Below are positions 1 to 34,665 of a DNA stretch of 64,000 bases, piece after piece (the stretch's first letter is position 1; every line of letters starts with the position of its first letter). This DNA is from Escherichia phage BEU44, in sequence record OM632670.1; one strand, given 5' to 3'. The notes below the pieces were generated by a model. That model was not told the DNA's origin. It worked only from the letters and a program-made list of their open reading frames with translations, and did not search any database. Both the position numbers and the translations under genes were made by a program.

Positions 1-2526
1 TCAGTCTGTATTCCGTTTAAGAGCAGCTTTTACAAGCAGTTTGATTGCAGGGATTGATTCAGGGAATTGTTCGATTTCACGAAGCAATGTGTCTACAGTA
101 CATGCAGCCAACATATAACCCCCAGCATCAATATCAAGGAACATCTTCGGTATCCTACGAAGTTCCGAGTACTTACTGAAAGTCTTGCAATGCACATCAA
201 CATCACTGAGGAAGTAATACTCTTCTTCAGTAATCAGACCCTTCCCTAACAATGCACGTAGCTTAGGGTAGCTACTACTTTGTAAGAAGAGATAAGCATT
301 CTCCAGTTCTGGGTCATAACGCAGACCTTTCAATGGGGCATATGTAATATCCAGTTCTCTCAGTAATCTGAGGTGTTTGGAGTAAATACCAATATCACTT
401 AACGTTTTCTGACGTTCTTTAGTGACATACTTAATGAATTGTTTGGATGTAAGAACTGAAGCAATATACGGAGCAGTCCATTCATCCAAATGAACAGCAC
501 CTCGCTTAATAGCTTTATTACGTTCAATTTTATTACGACAAACAACAGTCACAGCTTTAATGGTAGCAGGGGTTAATTGCCACATAGAAAGAACACCAAG
601 TCTTCCTGTGTAGTTATTAATATCTTCCTGCATGATGTAATACTGGGGAGTATCTACATCAACCATTCGGTCATGAGAACGAGAAGCGTAGTGAGAACCA
701 CATACTTCACTCGAATAGCTACGATGCTCTTTTGGTATTTCAAGGATATTCATACTAATAAGACGATTAGGACTAACCTTTTTCTTATTAGTAGTCTTCT
801 TAGCTTGTAATTTGGAAATGGCTAATTTAGCCTCTTGTTCCTCTTTACGTCTACGAGCTATACAATCCCACTCATGATATTCAGCCATATTAATGACTTC
901 GTATCCTGCTTTAGTGAGCAGATTAGTCATAGCTTCTGCTTCACCTTTCTTGGTTCCAACTTTGACAATGATTGAGTTATATTTTACCAGTGTCTCAGTA
1001 GAAAGATTATCAAACTCTGGATACCCAGCCAGACTATCTTCAATATTGGTAATACGTGGGGTAACAAATACACGGCACTTCTTAGAACTATAAGTCATGA
1101 AGTTTAATGAGTGTATTCTACGGACACTATTAACAATATTATTACGCCACAGTTCAACACCGTATTGATAATGAAATAGGGAAATACCTTTAGTAATCCC
1201 CAATTTAGCAAAGGTTTTGAACATTGGCTTAATAGCCATATCAGTAAATACTTTAGTTAATTCCCTGTAATTACGTAAATTCTTAGCCCTCTTTAAATGC
1301 TTACGGAGATGGGCTTTTTGAGAACCAGAGAAATGAGCCAGTGCAGGATGTTCAAGTTGACGGTCAATTTCCATATTTCCCCATTTCTTACACAGATGGG
1401 CATATTGCTTACTGAATAAAGTAGAGGACATATAACGACTGACAATAACATCAGGCACTAAATTGGTGTAAGGCAAATAACTATTTACTTCAAAACGGTG
1501 AGGACTATATTCTTTAATAGCCTTCCCAATATATTCAATAGCATTTGGAAGACGAGCTTTAATATCTGCTTCCATATTATCTACTAAAGCTACAGCCAAA
1601 TTTACGATACCGTCTTCGGTCATTTTTTGAGATGACAGTGTTTCACGGCTAGGTGCTACAGCTAGTGATGATGGGGCAGCCTGAACAACGATACGACTAC
1701 AGTTAATAACCTGCATAAACTGTTTAACCAGTTTTAATGCTTCATGTGTAGCAGGAGTATCCAAAGCAGGGTACATAACATTACCATAACGGATAAATAT
1801 TGAATGACTGCCCATGTAATATTTATGCCATGTGTTATGGTCTAGGTTATAGCTACCTGGTTCAAAAGACATACCCAGTACAGGCAATAACTCTACTGTA
1901 TTTGGTCCTGTATACTGATTGCAGTAAATACATTTAATCTCACCATGTAATACAATGGCTCGAATATATGAATCAATTTCTAAAATATCTTCTGACTGAA
2001 GCTGAATTTTAACTTCAAGCCCTGATTCTTCAGTAGGTACGCTAACGATAGGAATAATCCCTGGTTTACCGTTAGTCTCAACAGAAGATTTAGCAATGTG
2101 ATAGACAGTCTTGGTTCCGTCACACATAGATGTGACTGTAAAACTGTCTGTATAGGCCATAGGAGATTTACATCCTAAGCCAAAGCCACCAGTGGAAGCA
2201 GTATTAGCTTTCTTGGTAGATGCACCATATACCCCATAGACCTCTTGAATCTTATCTTTAGGAATACCAGAACCATAGTCACGGAAGATAAGGAAACCAT
2301 CTTTATCAATGGTTACATGGATAGGAATATCTGTTTTATCCCCCTCAATATGAGCATCCCAGCTATTGCACAATGTCTCACGTACCATTGCCAGTTTCTG
2401 ATTAGAATAGAGGTTAGCACTGAGTATTTGGAAGAATGCTGGGTCTTCAGAAATACCGAAGGCCATAGCATCTTGAGCACCCAACGTTGCTGATGTGGTC
2501 AGTTCAGTAGAGTCAGCTACTTGCAT
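1..2526 (-). CDS. rIIA: rIIA-like protein with N-terminal GHKL-type ATPase fold
   Basis: 841-aa ORF, ATG at 2524-2526; N-terminal NSWDAH, RDYGSGIP and TGGFGLG resemble GHKL ATP-binding boxes as in T4 rIIA; position matches N4-like order. Confidence 0.5.
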   Translation of the reverse strand: MQVADSTELTTSATLGAQDAMAFGISEDPAFFQILSANLYSNQKLAMVRETLCNSWDAHIEGDKTDIPIHVTIDKDGFLIFRDYGSGIPKDKIQEVYGVYGASTKKANTASTGGFGLGCKSPMAYTDSFTVTSMCDGTKTVYHIAKSSVETNGKPGIIPIVSVPTEESGLEVKIQLQSEDILEIDSYIRAIVLHGEIKCIYCNQYTGPNTVELLPVLGMSFEPGSYNLDHNTWHKYYMGSHSIFIRYGNVMYPALDTPATHEALKLVKQFMQVINCSRIVVQAAPSSLAVAPSRETLSSQKMTEDGIVNLAVALVDNMEADIKARLPNAIEYIGKAIKEYSPHRFEVNSYLPYTNLVPDVIVSRYMSSTLFSKQYAHLCKKWGNMEIDRQLEHPALAHFSGSQKAHLRKHLKRAKNLRNYRELTKVFTDMAIKPMFKTFAKLGITKGISLFHYQYGVELWRNNIVNSVRRIHSLNFMTYSSKKCRVFVTPRITNIEDSLAGYPEFDNLSTETLVKYNSIIVKVGTKKGEAEAMTNLLTKAGYEVINMAEYHEWDCIARRRKEEQEAKLAISKLQAKKTTNKKKVSPNRLISMNILEIPKEHRSYSSEVCGSHYASRSHDRMVDVDTPQYYIMQEDINNYTGRLGVLSMWQLTPATIKAVTVVCRNKIERNKAIKRGAVHLDEWTAPYIASVLTSKQFIKYVTKERQKTLSDIGIYSKHLRLLRELDITYAPLKGLRYDPELENAYLFLQSSSYPKLRALLGKGLITEEEYYFLSDVDVHCKTFSKYSELRRIPKMFLDIDAGGYMLAACTVDTLLREIEQFPESIPAIKLLVKAALKRNTD

Positions 2527-2858
2527 ACAGTTTCATCAACAGTTTCAGTAGTAGTTTCTACTTCAACTACTTCTTCTTTTTTCTTACCAGTAGCAGAAGC
2601 CAGAGCACTGACAGCAGCAGTATTGGTCTGGGTTACTGGACGATGCTTGCGTTCCTTTGACTCTTTCTTTGGTTCCTCAACCACTTCAACAGATTGGGAA
2701 CCAGCAGGGACAATATCTACGATTGCAGTAGCACCATCATCACCACGAGTAGCTTTGAAGGTTACTTTAATTTCCATACCTTCACGTACAGACATCAGGT
2801 CGTTTACATAACCAGTCAGAGCAGCTTCGATTTCAGGTTGGGTCAGGATTACTTGCAT
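2517..2858 (-). CDS. hypothetical protein (113 aa)
   Basis: ORF between RuvC-like and rIIA-like genes; 10-nt overlap with rIIA start; no recognisable motif. Confidence 0.4.
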   Translation of the reverse strand: MQVILTQPEIEAALTGYVNDLMSVREGMEIKVTFKATRGDDGATAIVDIVPAGSQSVEVVEEPKKESKERKHRPVTQTNTAAVSALASATGKKKEEVVEVETTTETVDETVCK

Positions 2859-2860
2859 TG

Positions 2861-3418
2861 TTATACCTTTGATAAAATTCTCATTAAATTCTGGAAAGCA
2901 GGAGTGAGTACCCCTGCATGGATAGCACCTACAGCATCAGCTAAATGCTCGTTCTTATTGAGTAGCCTACCTTTGGTATCCTTGAGCCAGTTGGCCTCTG
3001 GATAAAATCCTGTAGCTGCTCTAATCATCACATCTTTAGAAGCAGTCTTAATACCGGACAGAGCTACTTTGTTCTCGATGGGAGTAACCTCAATAATCTC
3101 ATGTCCTAGTGCCCTAAGTGCTCCTAAGATGCCTACACAAACACCATAGGATTTCATTCCATTGGCACTTTGTGAACCAACGGGAACCTCTACAAAGATG
3201 ACCTTTGCTTCTTTGAACCAGTCGATGACACCAGCAGTAATATCCTCGGCAGCTTGCATATCTTTGCTGTTTTGCCTTACTTGCTTGGTTCCATCAGGTT
3301 TGGTTTCTACCAGCTTCAGGTTTAATCCAGAGAGTATTCCCGTCTCTAAGTCGAGCATTCCCCGTGCTAGTCCCCAGTTACGAAAACTGGGGTCAACTCC
3401 AAGCACAGGTATCTGCAT
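2861..3418 (-). CDS. putative RuvC-like Holliday junction resolvase
   Basis: 185 aa; N-terminal LGVDPS and later FVEVPVGS resemble RuvC/RNase H-fold acidic motifs; ATG at 3416-3418 abuts SSB stop. Confidence 0.45.
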   Translation of the reverse strand: MQIPVLGVDPSFRNWGLARGMLDLETGILSGLNLKLVETKPDGTKQVRQNSKDMQAAEDITAGVIDWFKEAKVIFVEVPVGSQSANGMKSYGVCVGILGALRALGHEIIEVTPIENKVALSGIKTASKDVMIRAATGFYPEANWLKDTKGRLLNKNEHLADAVGAIHAGVLTPAFQNLMRILSKV

Positions 3419-4215
3419 TATTTCTTACCGAACAGAGATTTTGCAGCAGAAGCACCCGCACCAGTGTTAGTAGCACCTGGTTTTGGTGGCTGACCAGCTT
3501 TACCGGAAGCACCGCCTTTAGTGGTTTTATCACGGGTAACGCCTTTGTTTTTCTCCAGCCATTTGTCCCAGAAGACTGCTTCTTCAACGGTCAGTTCTTT
3601 ACCACGTTCAGTCAGTTCTTCTGCTTCAACAACAGTCAGATGCAGGTCAGGATGGAATACTTTTTCGATGGTATTAGTGAAGCGAGTTTCACCAGTAGAC
3701 ACATAGTTACCGGAGCCATCTTTAGTCTGCTTATCTTCTTCAGATTTCAGAATAGCTACAGCAAACTTACCACCGATAGCATTGACTGGAACCATGACAG
3801 ATTTGGCAACTTCTTTCTTCTCATCGAAGTCATATACGTTAACGACTTTCTCTTCGAAGACTGCTTCAGGAATAGTCTCACCAGAAGTCATTACCAGGAT
3901 GTCATTGATTACAGTGTAGCCCGGCAGGAAGTATTCCTTACCATTCTTTTCATAAGTACACTTGCAGCCTTTTTCAGTACCAGAAGTGATGTACAGTTGC
4001 TCACGGTATTCACCAGCACTGTGTCCATTAAGGTCAGTCAGGTCTGCAATAATCTGAATGAAGTTAGCACCAGAAGCTGCTTTACCTGCATAAGCTACTT
4101 TCAGGTTAGCCAAATAAATATCAGATTCTTTTGCACCAAATCCACCACCCAGGTTATCCGTTGCTTTCTCTGCTTTAGCTGCCTGACCTGCCAGATTTCC
4201 GAATAAATTGCTCAT
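3418..4215 (-). CDS. single-stranded DNA-binding protein (N4 SSB type)
   Basis: 265 aa, ATG at 4213-4215; size and position as I recall for N4 SSB; Gly/Lys-rich flexible C-terminal tail. Confidence 0.55.
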   Translation of the reverse strand: MSNLFGNLAGQAAKAEKATDNLGGGFGAKESDIYLANLKVAYAGKAASGANFIQIIADLTDLNGHSAGEYREQLYITSGTEKGCKCTYEKNGKEYFLPGYTVINDILVMTSGETIPEAVFEEKVVNVYDFDEKKEVAKSVMVPVNAIGGKFAVAILKSEEDKQTKDGSGNYVSTGETRFTNTIEKVFHPDLHLTVVEAEELTERGKELTVEEAVFWDKWLEKNKGVTRDKTTKGGASGKAGQPPKPGATNTGAGASAAKSLFGKK

Positions 4216-4260
4216 TTATATTTCCTACTTAATTAAATTAATGAATGATTAACAACCAGA

Positions 4261-5016
4261 TTAAGCACCGGTAGAGTAATACTCTGCCAGATGGTCGAGA
4301 AGTTTTTGGGCGTCATTGTCCATATAAGTCTCTTGCTTACTGAACATACCCATAGGAGAACGGATACGTTTACCTACTGTTTTCTTAGTAGGTCGAGTCT
4401 GGAATACGTGTTTGTACCCTAACTCTTGTTCATCCTCAGTAATTTCCAACATTCCATTGGAATACTTTTCAAGTTCTTTAAGGTCGATACGTTCTGCTGA
4501 TACAACAGTAGAGAAGTATGCTTCAATACCATTGTTCTTCAGAGAACCTTTTACTGGAACGAAAGTCTTCAGTTCCATTGCACGTTCATCTACTTCGTCT
4601 TTGACGTGAGCAGTGAAAATAACTGGCTTGGCAAATTTAACTACTTTCTCCTGAAGGAGAATTTTGAAGAACTGTGCAAATTCACCCCAAGCCTTCTGAG
4701 TGTTTGCAGCAGTGAGTACATACTGAGTTTCCAGCATATCCATCATGAAAGTCAGGGAATCTACAATGATTCCGTCCACGTCATCACGATGTTCAATGCA
4801 TTGGTCAAAGTATTCCAGAATTTGGTATGGGTCAGTAATACGAACACCATTGAAGTTATTCTTAAATGGCAGACGTTTACCAGCTTCTGTATTCAGATAT
4901 ACCCAACGTTCCTGGTTACGAATGTTACGAAGTGAGGCCGATTTACCAGCAGCAGAAAATCCTACAATCAGGATTAGCTGGTCATTCATTTCGCCATGTT
5001 CAAATTCTTCTGACAT
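4261..5016 (-). CDS. P-loop NTPase, possibly RecA-like (AAA_24/Sak4-like)
   Basis: 251 aa; Walker A GFSAAGKS near N-terminus followed by LNTEAGK. Confidence 0.45.
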   Translation of the reverse strand: MSEEFEHGEMNDQLILIVGFSAAGKSASLRNIRNQERWVYLNTEAGKRLPFKNNFNGVRITDPYQILEYFDQCIEHRDDVDGIIVDSLTFMMDMLETQYVLTAANTQKAWGEFAQFFKILLQEKVVKFAKPVIFTAHVKDEVDERAMELKTFVPVKGSLKNNGIEAYFSTVVSAERIDLKELEKYSNGMLEITEDEQELGYKHVFQTRPTKKTVGKRIRSPMGMFSKQETYMDNDAQKLLDHLAEYYSTGA

Positions 5017-5074
5017 AGTTTCCTCTTTTAACTAACAGTCCTCTTCAACCAAGAAAAGGACTGAATAGTTTCTG

Positions 5075-7222
5075 TTAAGATGTGTAACGTTTAGCCACAG
5101 TAATCATTACAGTGGAATCCAGTTCATCAGCAGATAGGGGATTGCTGAGTTTCTTATTGAACTCATGCACACGTTGTTTAACTTCATTGAAGCCTATACC
5201 ACTATCTACCAGAGCCAGAGCATACTTAATCATGTGGTTATTACGATTGCCTGTAGCAATTCGTTGGGCAAACCAACGTTCGAGATTATCCAGATTCTGA
5301 ACCTTCTGCATCCCTTGCTGGAATGCCTCATTCTTACTGGTTCTAGGAATGAAATCTCTTACGTCTAGCAGGGGAGCATCCATATTGTAGTAATACGTAC
5401 CCTTAGCACATGATTCCCATTTCTTGGCTCGTTGATTAGCAGACTCGTCCGTTTTAAATGGGAGCCATGCCATAACGTTATCCATGAACTCTTTATATTC
5501 AGCGCCATCAAGTTCAAGCTGATAGTTCATTGGAATAATTAACCGGAAACGGTTTTCTTCATCAGTATGGCGTTTGGTTGTATATGTCATGAATCGGTAT
5601 TCTTTCATCAATTCATGGCACACGTCCAAACTACACGTACCATCCACATCAATGACAATCATATTGAAGCCAGCAATAGCATTCTCTTCAGCACGATGCC
5701 CTCGACGGAAATGGTGGTTAGCCCAGTGATAACCTGCTTGCTGGGTTAGTACATGTAACTGGTCAAATGGAACTTTCTCTGCAATATAGTCATAAGCAAA
5801 GTTCTCACCATAAGAAACAATCATTTCGTTAGTATCAGTCTCTTTCAGTGTCTCACCACGGAAGAACTCAATACCTTCGTTGTATGTCTTCTTAATGATG
5901 ATATGCTGCTTATAGCCCCATGCAGTAGCTAAAGTCATCATCTCATTACGTGCAGCATTCCCACTCTTATAGAATGGTAAAGCCTCAAGCAAATCTGCAT
6001 GAGTAACTTCAGTACCAACAGATGCAATATACTTGGCTAATTTAACGTAGGCTTTTTCACGATTGAGGATAGTCTGGAATGCAACACCAGATTCTTCTAC
6101 CAGAAGGATTGCTTGCTTCAGATGTTCCATCTCTACCATAATACTGTTATCAACAAATGCAAATGCACCTGCCAATTTCAGTGCTTTAAAATAGCGATGT
6201 TCCAATTCTGCTTTACGAATCTCTTCGTGGTCAGCTAAAGCTGCTGCTTGTTTTTCACACTGAATCTTGTAATCGATTAGTGCAATACCAACATCATCTT
6301 CAACTGTCATTTTCCAACCAAACTTGGATGCATCTGCAAGGCTATGAAAGTGGTTAGCCCACTTATTCACAACAGCATTGTTATCCTGCTTAATCAGATT
6401 ACGATAGATTTCTTCAGCACTCTGGCTCAGATATGCACGTTTATCTGCCTGACCTACAGCAAACAGACAACGACGAGAATAGCCAGTATCAAGGAAGTCA
6501 TAGAAGAGTTCCTCAGTCTGGCTCCCATTGAGAAGTTTGCTCGGTGTACCAAACAGAAGAAGGTTAGCTGGAGTTTTACCATCAACTTCCTCACTACGAA
6601 TACTTTCAGCAGTATTCTTAGTAAGTTTCTGTTTAATCTTGCCTTGGTCGTACAACTCAAGGAACACAGTTAATACATCAGCATTAGCGAGAAGGTTTGA
6701 ACCAATCTCATCAATCTGTAAGTTAATAGCACCACATCCAGCTAATAAGAGTTTATGACGTAACTGTTTCACAGCAGGAGGTGTACCTGAGTCAAACGTA
6801 AATGGATAAGCACCCGTACGTCTGTATTCAGCTTCCACCTTGTCAAACTCTTCCTTCTGGTCAGTAGCATTACGAGCAGAACGTTCGTTAGCAATTTTCC
6901 ACAGACGGTCTTCTGCTAAAGCAGGCATGGTGTCTTCCATAAACCGCTTCTTAAAGCCAGCCATAAAACCGTCTTCAACAATGTTGACCGAATGGCCTTT
7001 ACCGAAGCCTGAAGTAGCAAGAGCCACTGCATAGATGTTTACTGGAATTTCACCACGGTCTTTAGTGATGATAGTTGCACCCATACATGAAGCCATTTTC
7101 GCAAGGAAATAGGCCACTTCTACACGGAAAAAACCACGGTCAGTGTTTTGCGTCTTGTTACATAACACATCAACGATTTCTTCAATCGCCGGATGATGTG
7201 AGACTCCGGTCAGGTCAATCAT
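5075..7222 (-). CDS. putative replication protein, possibly primase-like
   Basis: 715 aa, ATG at 7220-7222; C-terminal IVIDVDG resembles primase-polymerase DxD motif; sits between helicase/polymerase and SSB. Confidence 0.35.
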   Translation of the reverse strand: MIDLTGVSHHPAIEEIVDVLCNKTQNTDRGFFRVEVAYFLAKMASCMGATIITKDRGEIPVNIYAVALATSGFGKGHSVNIVEDGFMAGFKKRFMEDTMPALAEDRLWKIANERSARNATDQKEEFDKVEAEYRRTGAYPFTFDSGTPPAVKQLRHKLLLAGCGAINLQIDEIGSNLLANADVLTVFLELYDQGKIKQKLTKNTAESIRSEEVDGKTPANLLLFGTPSKLLNGSQTEELFYDFLDTGYSRRCLFAVGQADKRAYLSQSAEEIYRNLIKQDNNAVVNKWANHFHSLADASKFGWKMTVEDDVGIALIDYKIQCEKQAAALADHEEIRKAELEHRYFKALKLAGAFAFVDNSIMVEMEHLKQAILLVEESGVAFQTILNREKAYVKLAKYIASVGTEVTHADLLEALPFYKSGNAARNEMMTLATAWGYKQHIIIKKTYNEGIEFFRGETLKETDTNEMIVSYGENFAYDYIAEKVPFDQLHVLTQQAGYHWANHHFRRGHRAEENAIAGFNMIVIDVDGTCSLDVCHELMKEYRFMTYTTKRHTDEENRFRLIIPMNYQLELDGAEYKEFMDNVMAWLPFKTDESANQRAKKWESCAKGTYYYNMDAPLLDVRDFIPRTSKNEAFQQGMQKVQNLDNLERWFAQRIATGNRNNHMIKYALALVDSGIGFNEVKQRVHEFNKKLSNPLSADELDSTVMITVAKRYTS

Positions 7223-8193
7223 GGGAAATATCTCTTTCTTTGTTCGCAGATGTTAAAAATTGAGCAATAGTTGCATCGTTTAGGTTCACCAGGAACATGA
7301 AGAATAGTGCCTTTGCCTTTCTCTGCCATGAACTTCCGAGCCTCAAAGAGAGTAGGGAAGTTTTTGGTAGAACGAGCACCAGGTTGCTTTGCCTTCTCTG
7401 GGTCAGCAAAGTATTTAAACACTGGGTCAGAACGCCATAACTCTTCATCAGTACATTCTGGAATCTCGTTTTCAGGAGCATCCCAGTACTTATCAATGAG
7501 AGCCAGCTTGGCTTTAATCCATTCTTCAGTCGCTTCATAAGACATCAATGGAATGTCTTTATGCAGCACACGGTGCTTTGGGTAGTTTTCTTGAGATGTA
7601 GCTAGTGCTTTCATCCAGTCAGTGAAGATGTAGTTAATACGAATCACATCTTCGGTAATCTTGTCGTCATGTAACCAACGATACATTGACCCCTGAAGTT
7701 TATGTTCTTCATCACGTCCACCCTTTACCCATGTGTAAGTGGAGGTGGATTTTACATCCTGAAGAAGACCTTCAGTAACGATGTCGAACTTGCCCCCAAT
7801 AGTCCAACCAGCAATCTTTTTAGTTGCTCGTTGTTCTATCCATACAGGAATTAAGTTTGGATTTGATGCAATCTGCTCAGGGGTAGGATTGATGACAACA
7901 TTCTGAACGACACGCTCAGGATACCCTAACTTGCGTAATGCATTGTGGTGTCCGTTATGCCATGCCTTCTCAATAGAATCATGTAAGCCCGTACCCATAG
8001 AAGTGGACACCAAATCCATGATGTCCATACTTTCTACAGAAAGGTCTACACGATGCTTCATGACAATGTGCTTAATTGGCTTAAGCAAGGTAGTCACAGA
8101 AAGATACTTTTTATCCTTCACGTAATCATACTCGTCATGCAAAAGCCAGACAGCTAATGGCAAGGACACGTCATGATTGTTCGTGATTTTCAT
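7219..8193 (-). CDS. putative PD-(D/E)XK nuclease with C-terminal cysteine cluster (Cas4/RecB-like)
   Basis: 324 aa; GKFD...LQDVKST resembles nuclease motifs II/III; C-terminal CNYCSIFNIC cluster; ATGA overlap with upstream gene. Confidence 0.4.
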   Translation of the reverse strand: MKITNNHDVSLPLAVWLLHDEYDYVKDKKYLSVTTLLKPIKHIVMKHRVDLSVESMDIMDLVSTSMGTGLHDSIEKAWHNGHHNALRKLGYPERVVQNVVINPTPEQIASNPNLIPVWIEQRATKKIAGWTIGGKFDIVTEGLLQDVKSTSTYTWVKGGRDEEHKLQGSMYRWLHDDKITEDVIRINYIFTDWMKALATSQENYPKHRVLHKDIPLMSYEATEEWIKAKLALIDKYWDAPENEIPECTDEELWRSDPVFKYFADPEKAKQPGARSTKNFPTLFEARKFMAEKGKGTILHVPGEPKRCNYCSIFNICEQRKRYFP

Positions 8194-8798
8194 TTAGAAG
8201 CGACCTTAGATGGGTTACTGAAACGCCATGCAGTGATTCGAGCAAAGGGGGCAATCTTATCAGACCAGTCAATCTCATGAGGAAATACATGAGTAATAGT
8301 CGTTCCATCGGCACGTACTACATCAATTTGTTCTGCTTTGCTCATTGCAACAGCAATAGGCATAACACCCAAACGGTTTGGTACGTGAGTATGCCAACCA
8401 GCAAGGCTCATTACTTCACCTTCTGCTGCTTCACCAGTTAACAGGGTGAATAATTCAGACAGAGACATATGAATCTCTTCACCCTTCTTCAGAGCCTCAG
8501 AAACTGGTTCTTCTGCTTCTTTTTTCTGCCCACCGGATTCTTTAATAAAAATACGGTTAGCATAATGAACCATCTTCTCTGCATCATAAACGGCATTGTT
8601 ACCTGGTTTACCGTTACCTAAACGAGCAGCAGCATTACGCCACAATGCCTTGAACAGACACCCTTCATCAAAGGTCATATTTAGTGCTTGGATAATATCC
8701 TCACACTCGGCCTGATATGGAGGCTGTTCCATACGTTGAGGGTTGGTTACCTGAACCAGATAGTAGTTATTAAAACCACCTGATAGTTTTTCAGACAT
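8190..8798 (-). CDS. hypothetical protein (202 aa)
   Basis: ATG at 8796-8798 with GGAG SD; translationally coupled to neighbours. Confidence 0.4.
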   Translation of the reverse strand: MSEKLSGGFNNYYLVQVTNPQRMEQPPYQAECEDIIQALNMTFDEGCLFKALWRNAAARLGNGKPGNNAVYDAEKMVHYANRIFIKESGGQKKEAEEPVSEALKKGEEIHMSLSELFTLLTGEAAEGEVMSLAGWHTHVPNRLGVMPIAVAMSKAEQIDVVRADGTTITHVFPHEIDWSDKIAPFARITAWRFSNPSKVASK

Positions 8799-8800
8799 GA

Positions 8801-9139
8801 TTACTCCACAGCTTTCAGTTTAGCTTTCTTCGCAGCAGTATCTTTAGTTACCAGATTTTGCTGAAAGTCAGGCTGACTCATATGACCCAGGTAGCTGACG
8901 TTCAGGAATACAATATCCCGTACATCTACCACTTGACCAAAACGGTCATTCAGATTCTGAAACAGAGCAGACTGAGCACGTCCCAGGTCACGGAAAGTTA
9001 CCTGTTTCTCTTCAGTAAGCAACATAGTGTTCTGAACAATAACAGCACCTTCCTGACCATCTTTGTTATCAGGAATAACAAAAGTCAGTTGAGCTGCTAC
9101 TAACCAGTGATGCTTTTTCTCTTCAATTTGTTTGGTCAT
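8801..9139 (-). CDS. hypothetical protein (112 aa)
   Basis: ATG at 9137-9139 overlapping stop of polymerase C-fragment (ATGA). Confidence 0.4.
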   Translation of the reverse strand: MTKQIEEKKHHWLVAAQLTFVIPDNKDGQEGAVIVQNTMLLTEEKQVTFRDLGRAQSALFQNLNDRFGQVVDVRDIVFLNVSYLGHMSQPDFQQNLVTKDTAAKKAKLKAVE

Positions 9140-31185: not shown

Positions 31186-31542
31186 TTACTTACTCTCCAA
31201 CTGACTCTTAATCCAATTAATTCGACTTTGGTTCAGATGACATCTTCCATCAGAACACTCCATCATGTAGTCGAGAACATCTACATTGAATGGTAGATTT
31301 GTATCATTATCAGGAAGTAAATGAGTAAAGCTCTTACACAGAGCATCTACTGTTTCTTCACTGATTGGCTGTCTTCTAAGATACTTGCCTAGTTGAACAC
31401 ACAGTCCACTACCCCTATCAAACAGGTAATGAGGTTCACTGGCTCCATTATCTAACCACTCCTGATAGTCCATCAGGAATCGTTTTATAAGAGGATGCAT
31501 CTGTATACTCCTTCTTCTAAAACATCTGCTCAAACTATCCAT
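31186..31542 (-). CDS. hypothetical protein (118 aa)
   Basis: ORF in early-gene cluster. Confidence 0.35.
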   Translation of the reverse strand: MDSLSRCFRRRSIQMHPLIKRFLMDYQEWLDNGASEPHYLFDRGSGLCVQLGKYLRRQPISEETVDALCKSFTHLLPDNDTNLPFNVDVLDYMMECSDGRCHLNQSRINWIKSQLESK

Positions 31543-31603
31543 TACTTTTTAGTATCCCTTCGTCGAAAAGGGTCAAAATCTCTACTTTAGTATTTAGATA
31601 GTT

Positions 31604-31635
31604 AAAATTAAAAAGGACTACCCGAAGGTAGTCCT
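31604..31635 (-). terminator. intrinsic terminator
   Basis: 9-bp stem aggactacc/ggtagtcct (31614-31622, 31627-31635), CGAA loop, preceded on plus by aaaattaaaa; 8 nt after stop at 31643. Confidence 0.6.
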
Positions 31636-31642
31636 ATAGAGA

Positions 31643-32029
31643 TTAGAAAGTCAGTTTACGAGCATATTTATTCTCACTTGCTGAGATAGCAGGAGCTTCT
31701 TCTTTAACTCGACGAAGTTGAACTTGCAGTGAGATAACTCCTTCCTGACCTGGTTCCAGAGTCTTAGCAAATTCCATCAGTTGGTCTAACAAATCGTTCT
31801 GTGCACAACGCATTGCACGGAAGTCTTCGTTAGAGGAATTGGTTGGCAGATGCTCCTGAGTATCCAGTGGAATACCAGTAGGCAGAGAGATGAAACGTTC
31901 ATCTTCAGTGCCTTCATTAGCTACATAGCCAACGTTAATCCAGAACTGAGCTTTCGGGCGAGAACCATTGTTGGATTCAGTTTTAGTAGAAGCCTGACCA
32001 AAGGTTTTAGCAAAAGTAGTGATAGCCAT
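31643..32029 (-). CDS. early protein (128 aa), second gene from inferred left end
   Basis: ATG at 32027-32029 with GGAGAG SD; longest ORF starts TTG at 32140 inside the promoter hairpin. Confidence 0.45.
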
Positions 32030-32136
32030 TTTGTACTCTCCAGATAGTTGATTTTGATTAGTTGAGACTACTTTGTCGGTAAGTAATCCCAGACAAAAGG
32101 TTAAGATTTCATACAGGATTGGATGCATTACTTCAT

Positions 32137-32157
32137 CCAAAAGAAGCGGAGCTTCTT
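32137..32157 (-). promoter_or_regulatory. hairpin promoter of N4 virion-RNAP type (P2-like)
   Basis: catccaaaagaagcggagcttctt: 7-bp stem aagaagc/gcttctt (32141-32147, 32151-32157), loop gga; matches the N4 P2 promoter sequence as I recall it; predicted +1 near 32138 for leftward transcription. Confidence 0.65.
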
Positions 32158-32197
32158 ATCTTTAAAGTAGATAGTTATTGAACTATCGGTTCTATGT

Positions 32198-32221
32198 AAA
32201 AGGAGACTCCGAGGAGCCTCC
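32198..32221 (-). terminator. putative intrinsic terminator
   Basis: Minus transcript ggaggcuccucggagucucc followed by uuuu (plus A-run 32198-32201); lies between gene ending 32234 and promoter at 32137. Confidence 0.45.
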
Positions 32222-32233
32222 ATTTGTTTGTTA

Positions 32234-32560
32234 TTATTTAGAGTCTGCTAAGATTTTGCTAAGACGGTCATAGGCATTAGAGAACAATTCTTTGTTTTGT
32301 TCATCTTTGCAGAAGTCTAAGATTTGTTTCTGACGAATAGCTTCTTGCATTGCAGTTTCTTCAATAAGTTTATTGGTAAACTCATGCATTTCTAATTTGT
32401 CACGAATGATTTGTTTATCTGCTTGTTTAGTTACATAACGATTAAGCATACCTACTGCTTTAGTAGCAGTACCGAATGTATCAGCTACAGTAGTTGCTGC
32501 TTCATTAACAGTACCCAACAGAGTTCCTACAGTCATACGAACGTTAGCCTGAGTAGTCAT
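32234..32560 (-). CDS. early protein (108 aa), first gene from inferred left end
   Basis: ATG at 32558-32560 with GGAGG SD; longest ORF starts TTG at 32623 inside the promoter hairpin. Confidence 0.45.
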   Translation of the reverse strand: MTTQANVRMTVGTLLGTVNEAATTVADTFGTATKAVGMLNRYVTKQADKQIIRDKLEMHEFTNKLIEETAMQEAIRQKQILDFCKDEQNKELFSNAYDRLSKILADSK

Positions 32561-32605
32561 AGTATTAGCCTCCAATAGTTGATTGATAAGATACGGACAA
32601 CATGT

Positions 32606-32624
32606 CCATAAGTTGCGAAGCAAC
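32606..32624 (-). promoter_or_regulatory. hairpin promoter of N4 virion-RNAP type (P1-like)
   Basis: ccataag + stem gttgc/gcaac (32612-32616, 32620-32624) with loop gaa; same spacing and CCA..AAG element as the other two; 47 nt upstream of ATG at 32560. Confidence 0.55.
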
Positions 32625-32673
32625 GTGTAACGTGTACAAGGTGGGGTAGGCTAAGGCTACACTAGTAAAGACC

Positions 32674-32681
32674 GGGGGGGG
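32674..32681. repeat. G8 homopolymer tract in ORF-free G-rich region
   Basis: accgggggggg at 32671-32681 within otherwise AT-rich genome; near acgtgta and aggcta tandem duplications. Confidence 0.5.
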
Positions 32682-32927
32682 TGCTTATGGTGTAAGGGGT
32701 GTAGCCCCACCAAATACTAAACTCACAAGTAACTATGACTATTTTCACTAAGAAAAAAATTATAGGGTATCTATCTAATAGACTTCCTATTTATCTCTTA
32801 TAAATACTAACAACTTCATACAACTTACCTTCTATAAGAATAGGATGACCTACTTCTATGAAGGCCAGGCTATCTATCATCACTGGTTCGGATAAACCTT
32901 TAACTGTTATATACCACATAGCTTTCC

Positions 32928-33293
32928 TTATTTATAAGCAGATAACTTTGAAGTCTCTCTGAAGTAGAAAGTAACTGCATGATTAAAGTGATTCTGTTCT
33001 ACCACTGGTTCAAAGCCTTTTGGTGCCAGGAAGTAAATGACTTCGTTATTCCATGCATTAGTAGGTATTGCCACTTTCTTCCTTGGTTCAAGAAGAATGG
33101 TACTAATGTCTTTACCTTCTAAGAACCAGTTACCTAGTAGAGCATGGGTATCATCCGATTCAGGTAAGTAAAGAGGTTTGGTATTACCACACATAGCATG
33201 GAATAGATTGGTGGAACCACAGTGAAATAGAGCAGGTTTGTTTGTAGTGTACTCTAGGTTGATACCATAGACTTCATTAGGACGAATGTTCAT
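32928..33293 (-). CDS. hypothetical protein (121 aa)
   Basis: ATG at 33291-33293. Confidence 0.35.
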   Translation of the reverse strand: MNIRPNEVYGINLEYTTNKPALFHCGSTNLFHAMCGNTKPLYLPESDDTHALLGNWFLEGKDISTILLEPRKKVAIPTNAWNNEVIYFLAPKGFEPVVEQNHFNHAVTFYFRETSKLSAYK

Positions 33294-33312
33294 ATAGAAC
33301 TCCTTGGTTCAT

Positions 33313-33340
33313 AAAAGAAAAAGGGAGCCAAATGGCTCCC
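33313..33340 (-). terminator. intrinsic terminator
   Basis: 7-bp stem gggagcc/ggctccc (33323-33329, 33334-33340), loop aaat, preceded on plus by aaaagaaaaa = U-run on minus transcript. Confidence 0.55.
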
Positions 33341-33503
33341 AATTCCTATACCGAGTGTGTTTGTTAAATCAGTTCTCTCTGATACTACTCATCACCCAAT
33401 GGCAGATAACAAAGGTGTCTTGGAGATAGGTGAATGTAGCTGAAGTGGTTATTCAAACAGTTCCCTGTTTCCCGCCACCAACTCCTGGGCGGGCAATGGC
33501 TTA

Positions 33504-33845
33504 TCAAGCAACCACGGTCATCTCGATGGCGTCACGCTGTCGTTTGATAGAGATACTTTGAGGTATTCTTGTAAAGAATGCAAGACCCTCGATAGGCTTG
33601 GTAATGACACGTACTGGTGCAGGTTTATGGACAGTAAACCCAGTGACGTTATTGATTAACATCATACCTGAGATGTAATGGAAAGACTCCTCATCGTGAC
33701 ATAAGATATGGTCACCTGGTATAGCCCCTCCAACTGGGATAGCTCCACCTATTTTACTGAAGTCTATCTCATTCCATTGGTCATTACCGTCAAAACTATA
33801 GAATAGCCTCATGTTACTGGTTCCTTTGGGCAATAGGCTCCCCAT
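33504..33845 (-). CDS. hypothetical protein (113 aa)
   Basis: ATG at 33843-33845; divergent from late operon. Confidence 0.35.
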   Translation of the reverse strand: MGSLLPKGTSNMRLFYSFDGNDQWNEIDFSKIGGAIPVGGAIPGDHILCHDEESFHYISGMMLINNVTGFTVHKPAPVRVITKPIEGLAFFTRIPQSISIKRQRDAIEMTVVA

Positions 33846-33972
33846 GTCTCTGTCTTACTATTGTAAGGAGACTAAAGAAAGTCTAAAGTCTAAATCTATG
33901 TATAGGTTTCTGCAAGGGGTGCTAACCCCAAGAAAAGAATCCTCTTCACTCTAGATAATTTGTAGGAAGACT

Positions 33973-34665
33973 ATGAGCACACTACTGACTAAGAAAGACA
34001 TTGTTTCTGCATTGCCTCCCCAGTTTAAAAGCAGTGTTACTGACCAACTGGTAAACATGATTAACAATGTGACCCAAGACCAGACAGCAGCAGAGCAAAT
34101 TAGAAATAACTTTGTGACTTATGCTGGGGTGATGAAGGATGGGAAGTTTAAGACCCAGGATTATCTTAATGCTGTTCAATATGTTACTTACAAACACATG
34201 GGGTATAGTAACAAAGATGCTTATTTCAAAACATTCCCCAACAGACAAGCTGAATTAGTAGCAAGAGGAACCAGTGAGAAGGACATCTCTGCTTATGTAT
34301 CTGCTTACCATAGAGGTAAGTTAGTAAACCTCATTATGGAACAATCACTGATTCCAGTATGGATTGTTAATCAGGATTTGTTTCAGGAAGCATTGAACCA
34401 TCAGGCATGGCTCATGAAGAATGCTACCAGTGAGAAGGTACAGTGTGATGCTGCCAACTCTATCCTTACTCACCTCCAGAAACCGAAGGATGCTGTTACT
34501 AATATCAATCTGGATTTGAGAGAAAACTCTGGATTGACTGAACTCAAGAATACACTAACCCAGTTGGCTGAAGCTCAGAAAGCAGCTATTGAAGCTGGTA
34601 CACCTACTAAAGTAATTGCAGGTTCCACACTGGTTCGAGAAGACGAGGATATTATTGATGTCTGA
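33973..34665 (+). CDS. hypothetical protein, candidate terminase small subunit by position
   Basis: 230 aa; ATG at 33973 with AGGAAG SD; immediately upstream of and overlapping terminase large subunit. Confidence 0.3.
   Translation: MSTLLTKKDIVSALPPQFKSSVTDQLVNMINNVTQDQTAAEQIRNNFVTYAGVMKDGKFKTQDYLNAVQYVTYKHMGYSNKDAYFKTFPNRQAELVARGTSEKDISAYVSAYHRGKLVNLIMEQSLIPVWIVNQDLFQEALNHQAWLMKNATSEKVQCDAANSILTHLQKPKDAVTNINLDLRENSGLTELKNTLTQLAEAQKAAIEAGTPTKVIAGSTLVREDEDIIDV

Follow-up and report, generated by a model that had tools for sequence, protein, structure and literature searches.

A C tract at a conserved distance from the left genome end of N4-like phages, a candidate packaging signal mapped in Escherichia phage BEU44

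Phage T7 has defined, non-permuted genome ends. Its short terminal repeat carries the early promoters, the left end enters the cell first with the early genes, and its concatemers hold one repeat copy between genomes, which is duplicated during packaging. By analogy, N4-type phages probably share with T7 the short direct terminal repeats and the processing of concatemer junctions. Unlike T7, they have ends with 3' extensions, and their right ends are heterogeneous (PMC3896407). No sequence similarity exists between the two, and the N4-type early promoters, which are single-stranded hairpins, are recognised by a polymerase carried in the virion. According to later papers that cite Ohmori, Haynes and Rothman-Denes 1988, the direct terminal repeats of N4 are 390-440 bp long (PMC3715699, PMC3896407). 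These papers also report that N4 DNA carries 3' extensions and that its left end is unique, with more than one right end (PMC3715699, PMC3670811, PMC3896407). Among relatives, the repeat is 401 bp in IME11, 404 bp in KP8, 416 bp in phiAxp-3, 660 bp in LUZ7 and 1160 bp in G7C. The N4-like termini compared here were either determined experimentally or taken from record annotation. IME11, G7C, KP8, phiAxp-3, LUZ7 and LIT1/PEV2 share a common arrangement with the locus described below: the end lies 29-35 nt upstream of a box of at least seven C, next come a CCTACCCC box and an early promoter of the hairpin type, and a hexamer of the form KYAGKR is found just outside the cut.

We analysed a stretch of 64,000 nucleotides from Escherichia phage BEU44 (OM632670.1), hereafter the window, in which the interval 32625-32927 had been flagged by a first-pass annotation. 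The window is an Enquatrovirus sequence with 98.4% identity to coliphage N4. The BEU44 assembly differs from the N4 record in being circularly permuted and reverse-complemented, so that the genome end is internal to the window. Over 32200-34000, megablast revealed 100% identity with the Escherichia phages BEU5 and BEU14 and 98% identity with N4, PMBT57, Jura and others, all of which are Enquatrovirus. In BLAST against the N4 record EF056009, window 32712-32000 corresponds to N4 nt 1-714 with 99.0% identity, window 34100-32713 corresponds to the final 1387 nt of the N4 record up to its nt 70153, and N4 1-9000 is collinear with window 32712 to 23714 (98.4% identity, one gap). The first 153 nt from the end differ from N4 by one substitution and by the homopolymer segment (C8GG in the window, C9T in N4). 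The order of end, C tract, P1 and gp1 is the same as in N4, and so is the place of gp72 as the last unique gene across the junction. The first-pass annotation had counted 14 early ORFs before the RNAPII genes, as in N4 numbering; this count is correct, because gp1-gp14 precede the two RNAP II subunit genes in the N4 annotation. A tRNA/tmRNA scan of the whole window found none.

The first-pass annotation had supposed that the physical left end maps to the flagged interval and had proposed a comparison with the N4 terminal sequence. This comparison bears the supposition out: in an exact BLAST alignment to EF056009, N4 nt 1 falls on 32712, the first genome base on the minus strand, and nt 70153 falls on 32713, the last unique base. 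The start/end junction of the N4 record is thus inside the flagged interval, 3 nt from the GC hairpin described there, and the ends of relatives are homologous. G7C, KP8, IME11, phiAxp-3, LUZ7, LIT1 and PEV2 have the equivalent end position, and the end of St11Ph5 is homologous to 32712/32713 as well. In IME11, read-start pile-ups lie at (T)GTGGCTGGGGCTACACCC, which is the homologue of N4 nt 1 (PMC3896407). The annotated 1160-bp repeat of G7C begins with TGACAGGGGCTACACCC, and the 404-bp repeat of KP8, which was verified by self-BLAST, begins with ATTGGTGGGGCTACACCCC; both start 5-6 nt ahead of the common GGGGCTACACCC. The records of N4, 3HA13, VEc25 and OLB145 start at this site, and those of 3HA13, VEc25 and OLB145 may merely have been oriented to N4 and hence may not be independent. 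In Klebsiella phages, G7C and pSb-1, homology flanks the cut on both sides. A headful (pac) mode of packaging, with circularly permuted DNA, was considered and rejected, as the ends of relatives are fixed and their repeats exact at this site. We infer the BEU44 end by homology with the 98% identical N4 and with relatives. Judged from these alignments, the flagged interval very probably straddles the start of N4-type virion DNA, where the short terminal repeat begins. This left end is a re-identification of an N4 feature that was mapped in 1988 and is already known. The features around it are listed in Table 1.

Table 1. Features around the predicted left genome end of BEU44, in positions of the window
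Feature	Position	Strand	Remarks
Predicted physical left end (concatemer junction)	32712..32713	.	BLAST to EF056009 and ends of relatives; uncertainty ~+/-3 nt
Predicted direct terminal repeat, ~410 bp	~32303..32712	minus	KP8 and IME11 alignments; holds the leader, P1 and most of gp1
Non-coding G-rich leader, first 88 bp of the repeat	32625-32712		Between end and P1
Terminal 25 nt, TGGTGGGGCTACACCCCTTACACCA	32688..32712	minus	Imperfect inverted repeat that includes the flagged hairpin
G8 on plus strand, C8 on N4 top strand; local C7-12(GGTA) box	32674..32681	minus	Starts 32 nt from the end
Homopolymer length segment	32674-32683		C8GG in window; C9T in N4, PMBT57, VEc25; C10T in 3HA13, AlfredRasser, Jura; C12T in SPSP
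CCTACCCCACC box (plus: ggtggggtagg)	32640..32650	minus	20-35 nt downstream of the C box
Tandem aggcta copies	32648-32653 and 32654-32659		
Tandem acgtgta (TACACGT on minus)	32623-32629 and 32630-32636	minus	Upstream of P1; listed as 32625..32636
Further TACAC/GTGTA copies	32658-32662, 32690-32694, 32699-32703		Same cluster as tandem acgtgta
Virion RNA polymerase early promoter P1, hairpin gttgc-gaa-gcaac	32612..32624	plus = template	Transcription leftward into gp1
gp1, first early gene	32234..32560	minus	Mostly within the terminal repeat; N4 annotation, alignments
TTCTGCAAAGA in gp1	32303-32313		Nucleotide-level conservation in N4, KP8, IME11, G7C
Cut-proximal hexamer TTAGTA (KYAGKR)	32715-32720		Outside the cut, on the non-repeat side
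Unique right-end spacer, 78 bp	32713..32790	minus	From gp72 stop codon to cut
CATAGTTAC block	32729-32737		Within right-end spacer
T7/A7 run	32753-32759		Within right-end spacer
gp72, conserved 42-aa protein	32791..32919	minus	Last gene before right repeat; N4 annotation
gp71	32928..33293	minus	Right boundary of flagged interval; N4 annotation, ORF list

The flagged interval consists of two unrelated halves, the repeat leader at 32625-32712 and unique right-end sequence at 32713-32927. The earlier proposal that the terminal repeat maps here holds for its start at 32712, but the repeat runs leftward through P1 and most of gp1 and not into the AT-rich 200 bp. Self-BLAST revealed a single, collapsed repeat copy in the window assembly, and the duplication is directly visible in KP8 and G7C. 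The end of the KP8 repeat (nt 404) aligns to window 32303, and the second pile-up of IME11, 401 bp from the first (PMC3896407), aligns to 32302; from these two positions the BEU44 repeat is predicted to span ~32303-32712. The N4 range of 390-440 bp corresponds to window ~32273-32323, and the predicted 410 bp falls inside it. In a self-comparison, the ends of the N4 record (EF056009 / NC_008720; 70,153 bp) have no sequence in common. This indicates that the record holds one repeat copy, and the virion DNA should therefore be ~400 bp longer. Because repeat lengths range from 401 to 1160 bp among N4-like phages, the right-hand cut would not be governed by the left-end signal. The right ends of the ~400-bp repeats lie -5 to +27 nt from a conserved TTCTGCAARGA in gp1, and those of G7C and LUZ7 lie elsewhere. 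In Axy13, phiAxp-3 and JWAlpha, the gp1 motif takes the form TTCTGCAAGGA. Since TTCTGCAAAGA encodes a conserved FCKD, protein constraint may account for its conservation. It was also observed that the 1160-bp repeat of G7C stops ~14 nt past a promoter-like hairpin, GATGC-GAAGCA-GCATC (G7C nt 1125-1160), which suggests that the right-hand cut of G7C is placed after the phage's next early promoter.

The leader contains 38.6% G, and no 88-nt stretch of the window is richer in G than one that overlaps it. The G8 tract, the tandem acgtgta and aggcta units and the GC hairpin aaggggtgtagcccca (32694-32709) reported by the first-pass annotation are all present at the positions given there. The G8 tract is the sole run of at least seven G or C in the 64-kb window, where ~0.33 would be expected. 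The acgtgta duplication is part of a larger TACAC/GTGTA cluster, with five copies within 79 nt versus 101 across 64 kb; four of the five copies are kept across three genera, and the Axy13 end has four GTACAC copies. As a separate observation, TACAC/GTGTA is depleted window-wide (101 versus 150+/-11 in dinucleotide-preserving shuffles, with 100 of 100 shuffles higher), which might reflect avoidance of a recognition motif or mere codon usage. Counted from the end, the elements of the leader are the terminal GGGGCTACACCCC, the C8 tract, the CCTACCCCACC box, the TACAC repeats and the P1 hairpin. The blocks kept in Enquatrovirus, Gamaleyavirus and Kaypoctavirus are GGGGCTACACCC, TTACAC, the C run, CCTACCCCACCTTACAC, TTACACG, the P1 hairpin and TTATGGACATGTYGTCC. 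Among them, GGGGCTACACCC is invariant in Enquatrovirinae and absent at the ends of LIT1, LUZ7 and Axy13. Within Enquatrovirus, the homopolymer alone varies in the 105-nt leader and the rest is 100% identical, in isolates that differ by 2-3% overall. The C8 to C12 differences represent either true length variation or homopolymer sequencing error.

P1 occupies nt 89-101 from the predicted end. The template oligonucleotide used for P1 in transcription assays (PMC13434306) is identical to the window plus strand at 32576-32656, and the KP8 annotation has an early promoter at the homologous site. In sequences hand-extracted around the hairpin from 11 phages, 100% of the cells in the P1 stem pair, and three of the five pairs show compensatory changes. 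Further along the early-gene side, we observed an intrinsic-terminator-like hairpin on the minus strand just past gp1 (32202-32221), ahead of a second early-promoter hairpin, P2 (gaagc-gga-gcttc, 32143-32155). An Rfam scan of 31500-34500 at E<=1 gave only a sub-threshold L20-leader match at 31600-31710, outside the region.

On the other side of the cut, 32713-32927 is 69% A+T, in agreement with the earlier description of about 200 bp of AT-rich sequence. The region had also been called ORF-free; it holds no ORF of at least 60 aa, but it encodes gp72 (42 aa) and is not gene-free. The gp72 protein differs from N4 gp72 by one amino acid, and its clear protein homologue is gp35 of Shigella phage pSb-1. 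This conservation argues that gp72 is a real small gene. Beyond gp71, an intrinsic-terminator-like hairpin, GGGAGCC-ATTT-GGCTCCC followed by a T run, lies on the minus strand in the gp70/gp71 gap (33323-33340), and the Jura annotation has a terminator there. We also noted a non-coding element of 65-75 nt (33819-33893) in the divergent gap between gp70 (minus) and gp69 (plus; small terminase according to the KP8 annotation). The element has the core CAATAGG..CCCC..GTCTCTGTCTTACTATTGTAAGGAGACTAAAG...CTAAAGTCTAA. Identity reaches 92% with Inbricusvirus phages that infect Pseudomonas and Achromobacter and ~86% with JWAlpha, JWDelta and phiAxp-3, and its syntenic place is kept though the flanking genes are unalignable at the DNA level. 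The element has no Rfam match. Because its apparent stem shows mismatches and not compensation, a protein-binding DNA site is likelier than a structured RNA. It contains a candidate plus-strand promoter, TTGTAA-17-TAAAGT, for the late/terminase operon.

The G8 tract of the leader recurs, as a C tract on the N4 top strand, near the ends of many N4-like phages. C8 begins at nt 32 from the predicted end, and CTACCCC begins at nt 64. Of 13 N4-like ends, which come from three subfamilies, 12 have a C box whose start is 29-35 nt away from the left end. This distance is 32 nt in N4 and G7C, as it is in the window from its predicted end, 35 nt in KP8, 30 nt in St11Ph5, 33 nt in both IME11 and Axy13, 34 nt in phiAxp-3, 29 nt in LUZ7 and PEV2, 30 nt in LIT1, and 33 and 30 nt in IMG/VR contigs of 75,873 and 76,335 bp, respectively. 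The outlier is JWAlpha, at 6 nt, whose record begins 5 nt ahead of its C7 box. The reported repeat of JWAlpha (KF787095) is 51 bp shorter than that of phiAxp-3, and its deposited left end may be ~28 nt short. The ~30 nt that separate the end from the C box are unrelated between subfamilies and show no likeness outside Enquatrovirinae. The GGTA part of the C box is not essential, because N4 has C9TGTC and the window C8GGTC, whereas other genera have C7GGTA. The CCTACCCCACC box is invariant in the Enquatrovirinae alignment and is also present in LIT1, PEV2, Axy13, phiAxp-3 and many N4-like contigs of IMG/VR.

Conservation is also seen outside the cut. The last base of the KYAGKR hexamer is 1-3 nt short of every known end. 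A scan of IMG/VR with the pattern CCCCCCCGGTA-N10-40-CTACCCC returned 52 loci, mostly on N4-like contigs of 68-76 kb that include LIT1, PEV2, G7C, KP8 and inbricus, with some short-contig matches that are probably due to chance. As this set was picked by the C-box motif, only the flanking observations are independent evidence. When positions are counted relative to the C box in a non-redundant set of 21 N4-like sequences, KYAGKR shows enrichment at -42 to -35, with 12 matches in the -40 to -31 bin versus 0-4 (mean ~1.2) in each other 10-nt bin, and ATGT is enriched at -60 to -41 in the same sequences. An ungapped information-content profile anchored on the C box gave a weak signal upstream, because the distance from end to box varies by +/-3 nt; motifs were therefore counted by position. 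It is directly observed that the end is identical with that of N4, where P1 lies, and that the boxes are conserved and evenly spaced from the end. Because the conservation extends to both sides of the cut and the distance is fixed over an unrelated spacer, we propose that the left-end cut is directed by these boxes. Together with the outside hexamer, the C tract and the CCTACCCC box would form a putative signal that positions this cut ~30 bp upstream of the C tract, an assignment that we find plausible though short of probable. That the G8 tract is the core of a family-wide N4-like packaging signal, made up of the hexamer, the C7-12(GGTA) box and the CCTACCCC box and with the right end set separately, is possible and is put forward with reserve. 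The tract length of 7-12, which is unusual for a strict recognition site, and the JWAlpha outlier count against a cut signal. Within the searchable literature, a search for the terminal motifs found none in this context; GGGGCTACACCC appeared only in the IME11 read table, and CCCCCCCGGTA only in unrelated papers. The family-wide C box with its cut-site hexamer is a modest new comparative observation.

The boxes might instead serve the free, ejected left end and not a packaging nuclease. The virion RNA polymerase complex, once ejected, could dock or anchor there so that gyrase supercoiling can extrude P1 only 90 bp from the DNA end, or the boxes could act in end protection or in fold-back synthesis priming on the G-rich strand, which ends 3' at the left terminus. 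Such a role would suit the position of the boxes, which lie within the repeat at 30-75 nt from its end, directly upstream of P1. It would also suit the 3' extensions of N4 ends, as described in PMC3670811, and the ability of the terminal 25 nt to fold back. However, KYAGKR and ATGT are conserved on the non-repeat side, outside a free left end, and no C box was found beside P2 or anywhere else in the 64-kb window. The fold-back is weak as well. The flagged GC hairpin is thermodynamically unremarkable (-5.1 kcal/mol, z -1.2 versus shuffles), and folding of the 88-nt leader and of the terminal 30 nt on both strands gave energies no better than shuffled controls. Its outer stem is unconserved within the subfamily, being lost in KP8, G7C and St11Ph5, and the hairpin sequence, including the inner stem, is absent in other subfamilies (LIT1, LUZ7, Axy13). 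The inner stem is uninformative on covariation because it is invariant in Enquatrovirinae. A stable terminal hairpin or fold-back primer was rejected on these grounds. So was a G-quadruplex: a canonical motif, of four G runs of at least three with loops of 1-7 nt, is absent from 32600-32730, and only two-tetrad matches occur. Although a free-end role has the position of the boxes in its favour, we consider it unlikely, and in the sequences compared a nuclease positioning signal fits the conservation better than a function of the free DNA end.

The first-pass annotation had also offered a DNA replication origin as an alternative for the flagged region. The cumulative GC skew has its minimum at ~32 kb, and a cluster of short repeats (TACAC x5) lies beside an AT-rich stretch. 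However, the skew turns exactly where gene orientation changes, with genes on the minus strand left of 33.9 kb and on the plus strand from 33973, and this change suffices alone to explain the minimum; the AT-rich stretch is largely coding sequence of gp72; beyond the repeats, origin-type features were not found; and no paper retrieved in a literature search puts the N4 origin here. On these data, the origin reading is very improbable. Even less credible is the reading that the region is an ordinary intergenic spacer, with a G tract and duplications that arose by chance or as sequencing artefacts and a junction that comes from circular assembly. Homopolymers of C8 to C12 among close records are what sequencing errors would give, and a Sigma-70 promoter and terminator scan of 32100-34100 showed no excess over shuffles and nothing inside 32625-32790. 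Against a spacer, none of the relatives examined, from three subfamilies, lacks the tract, and its distance from ends determined by experiment is fixed; the remainder of the Enquatrovirus leader is identical in isolates that have diverged elsewhere; and in the G7C and KP8 records the junction sequence physically exists where the right repeat begins.

The following events can be proposed. The order gp72, 78-bp spacer, cut and terminal repeat is found in replicating concatemers and, in each virion, where unique sequence meets the right repeat. The packaging nuclease would cut between 32713 and 32712 to give the unique left end. If the boxes act as a packaging signal, they would set this cut ~30 bp, or three helical turns, upstream of the C tract. 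The right end would come from another cut, made with less precision ~410 bp further in (near 32303), so that each virion would carry the segment 32303-32712 at both ends. After injection, the virion RNA polymerase begins early transcription at P1, into gp1.

For the BEU44 map, this means that 32712 (minus strand) should become the first position of the genome and that a ~410-bp repeat (32303-32712) should be added at the right end, with gp72 as the last unique gene. A box of at least seven C at 29-35 nt together with the hexamer just outside the cut provides a rule by which the left end can be located from sequence only in the many N4-like assemblies that were deposited in arbitrary permutation, and the boxes are a concrete, mutable candidate packaging signal for the N4-like phage family. 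If this is true, they would be the first cis-acting packaging site for Schitoviridae, and for hundreds of permuted N4-like assemblies the sequence by itself would suffice to predict the genome ends.
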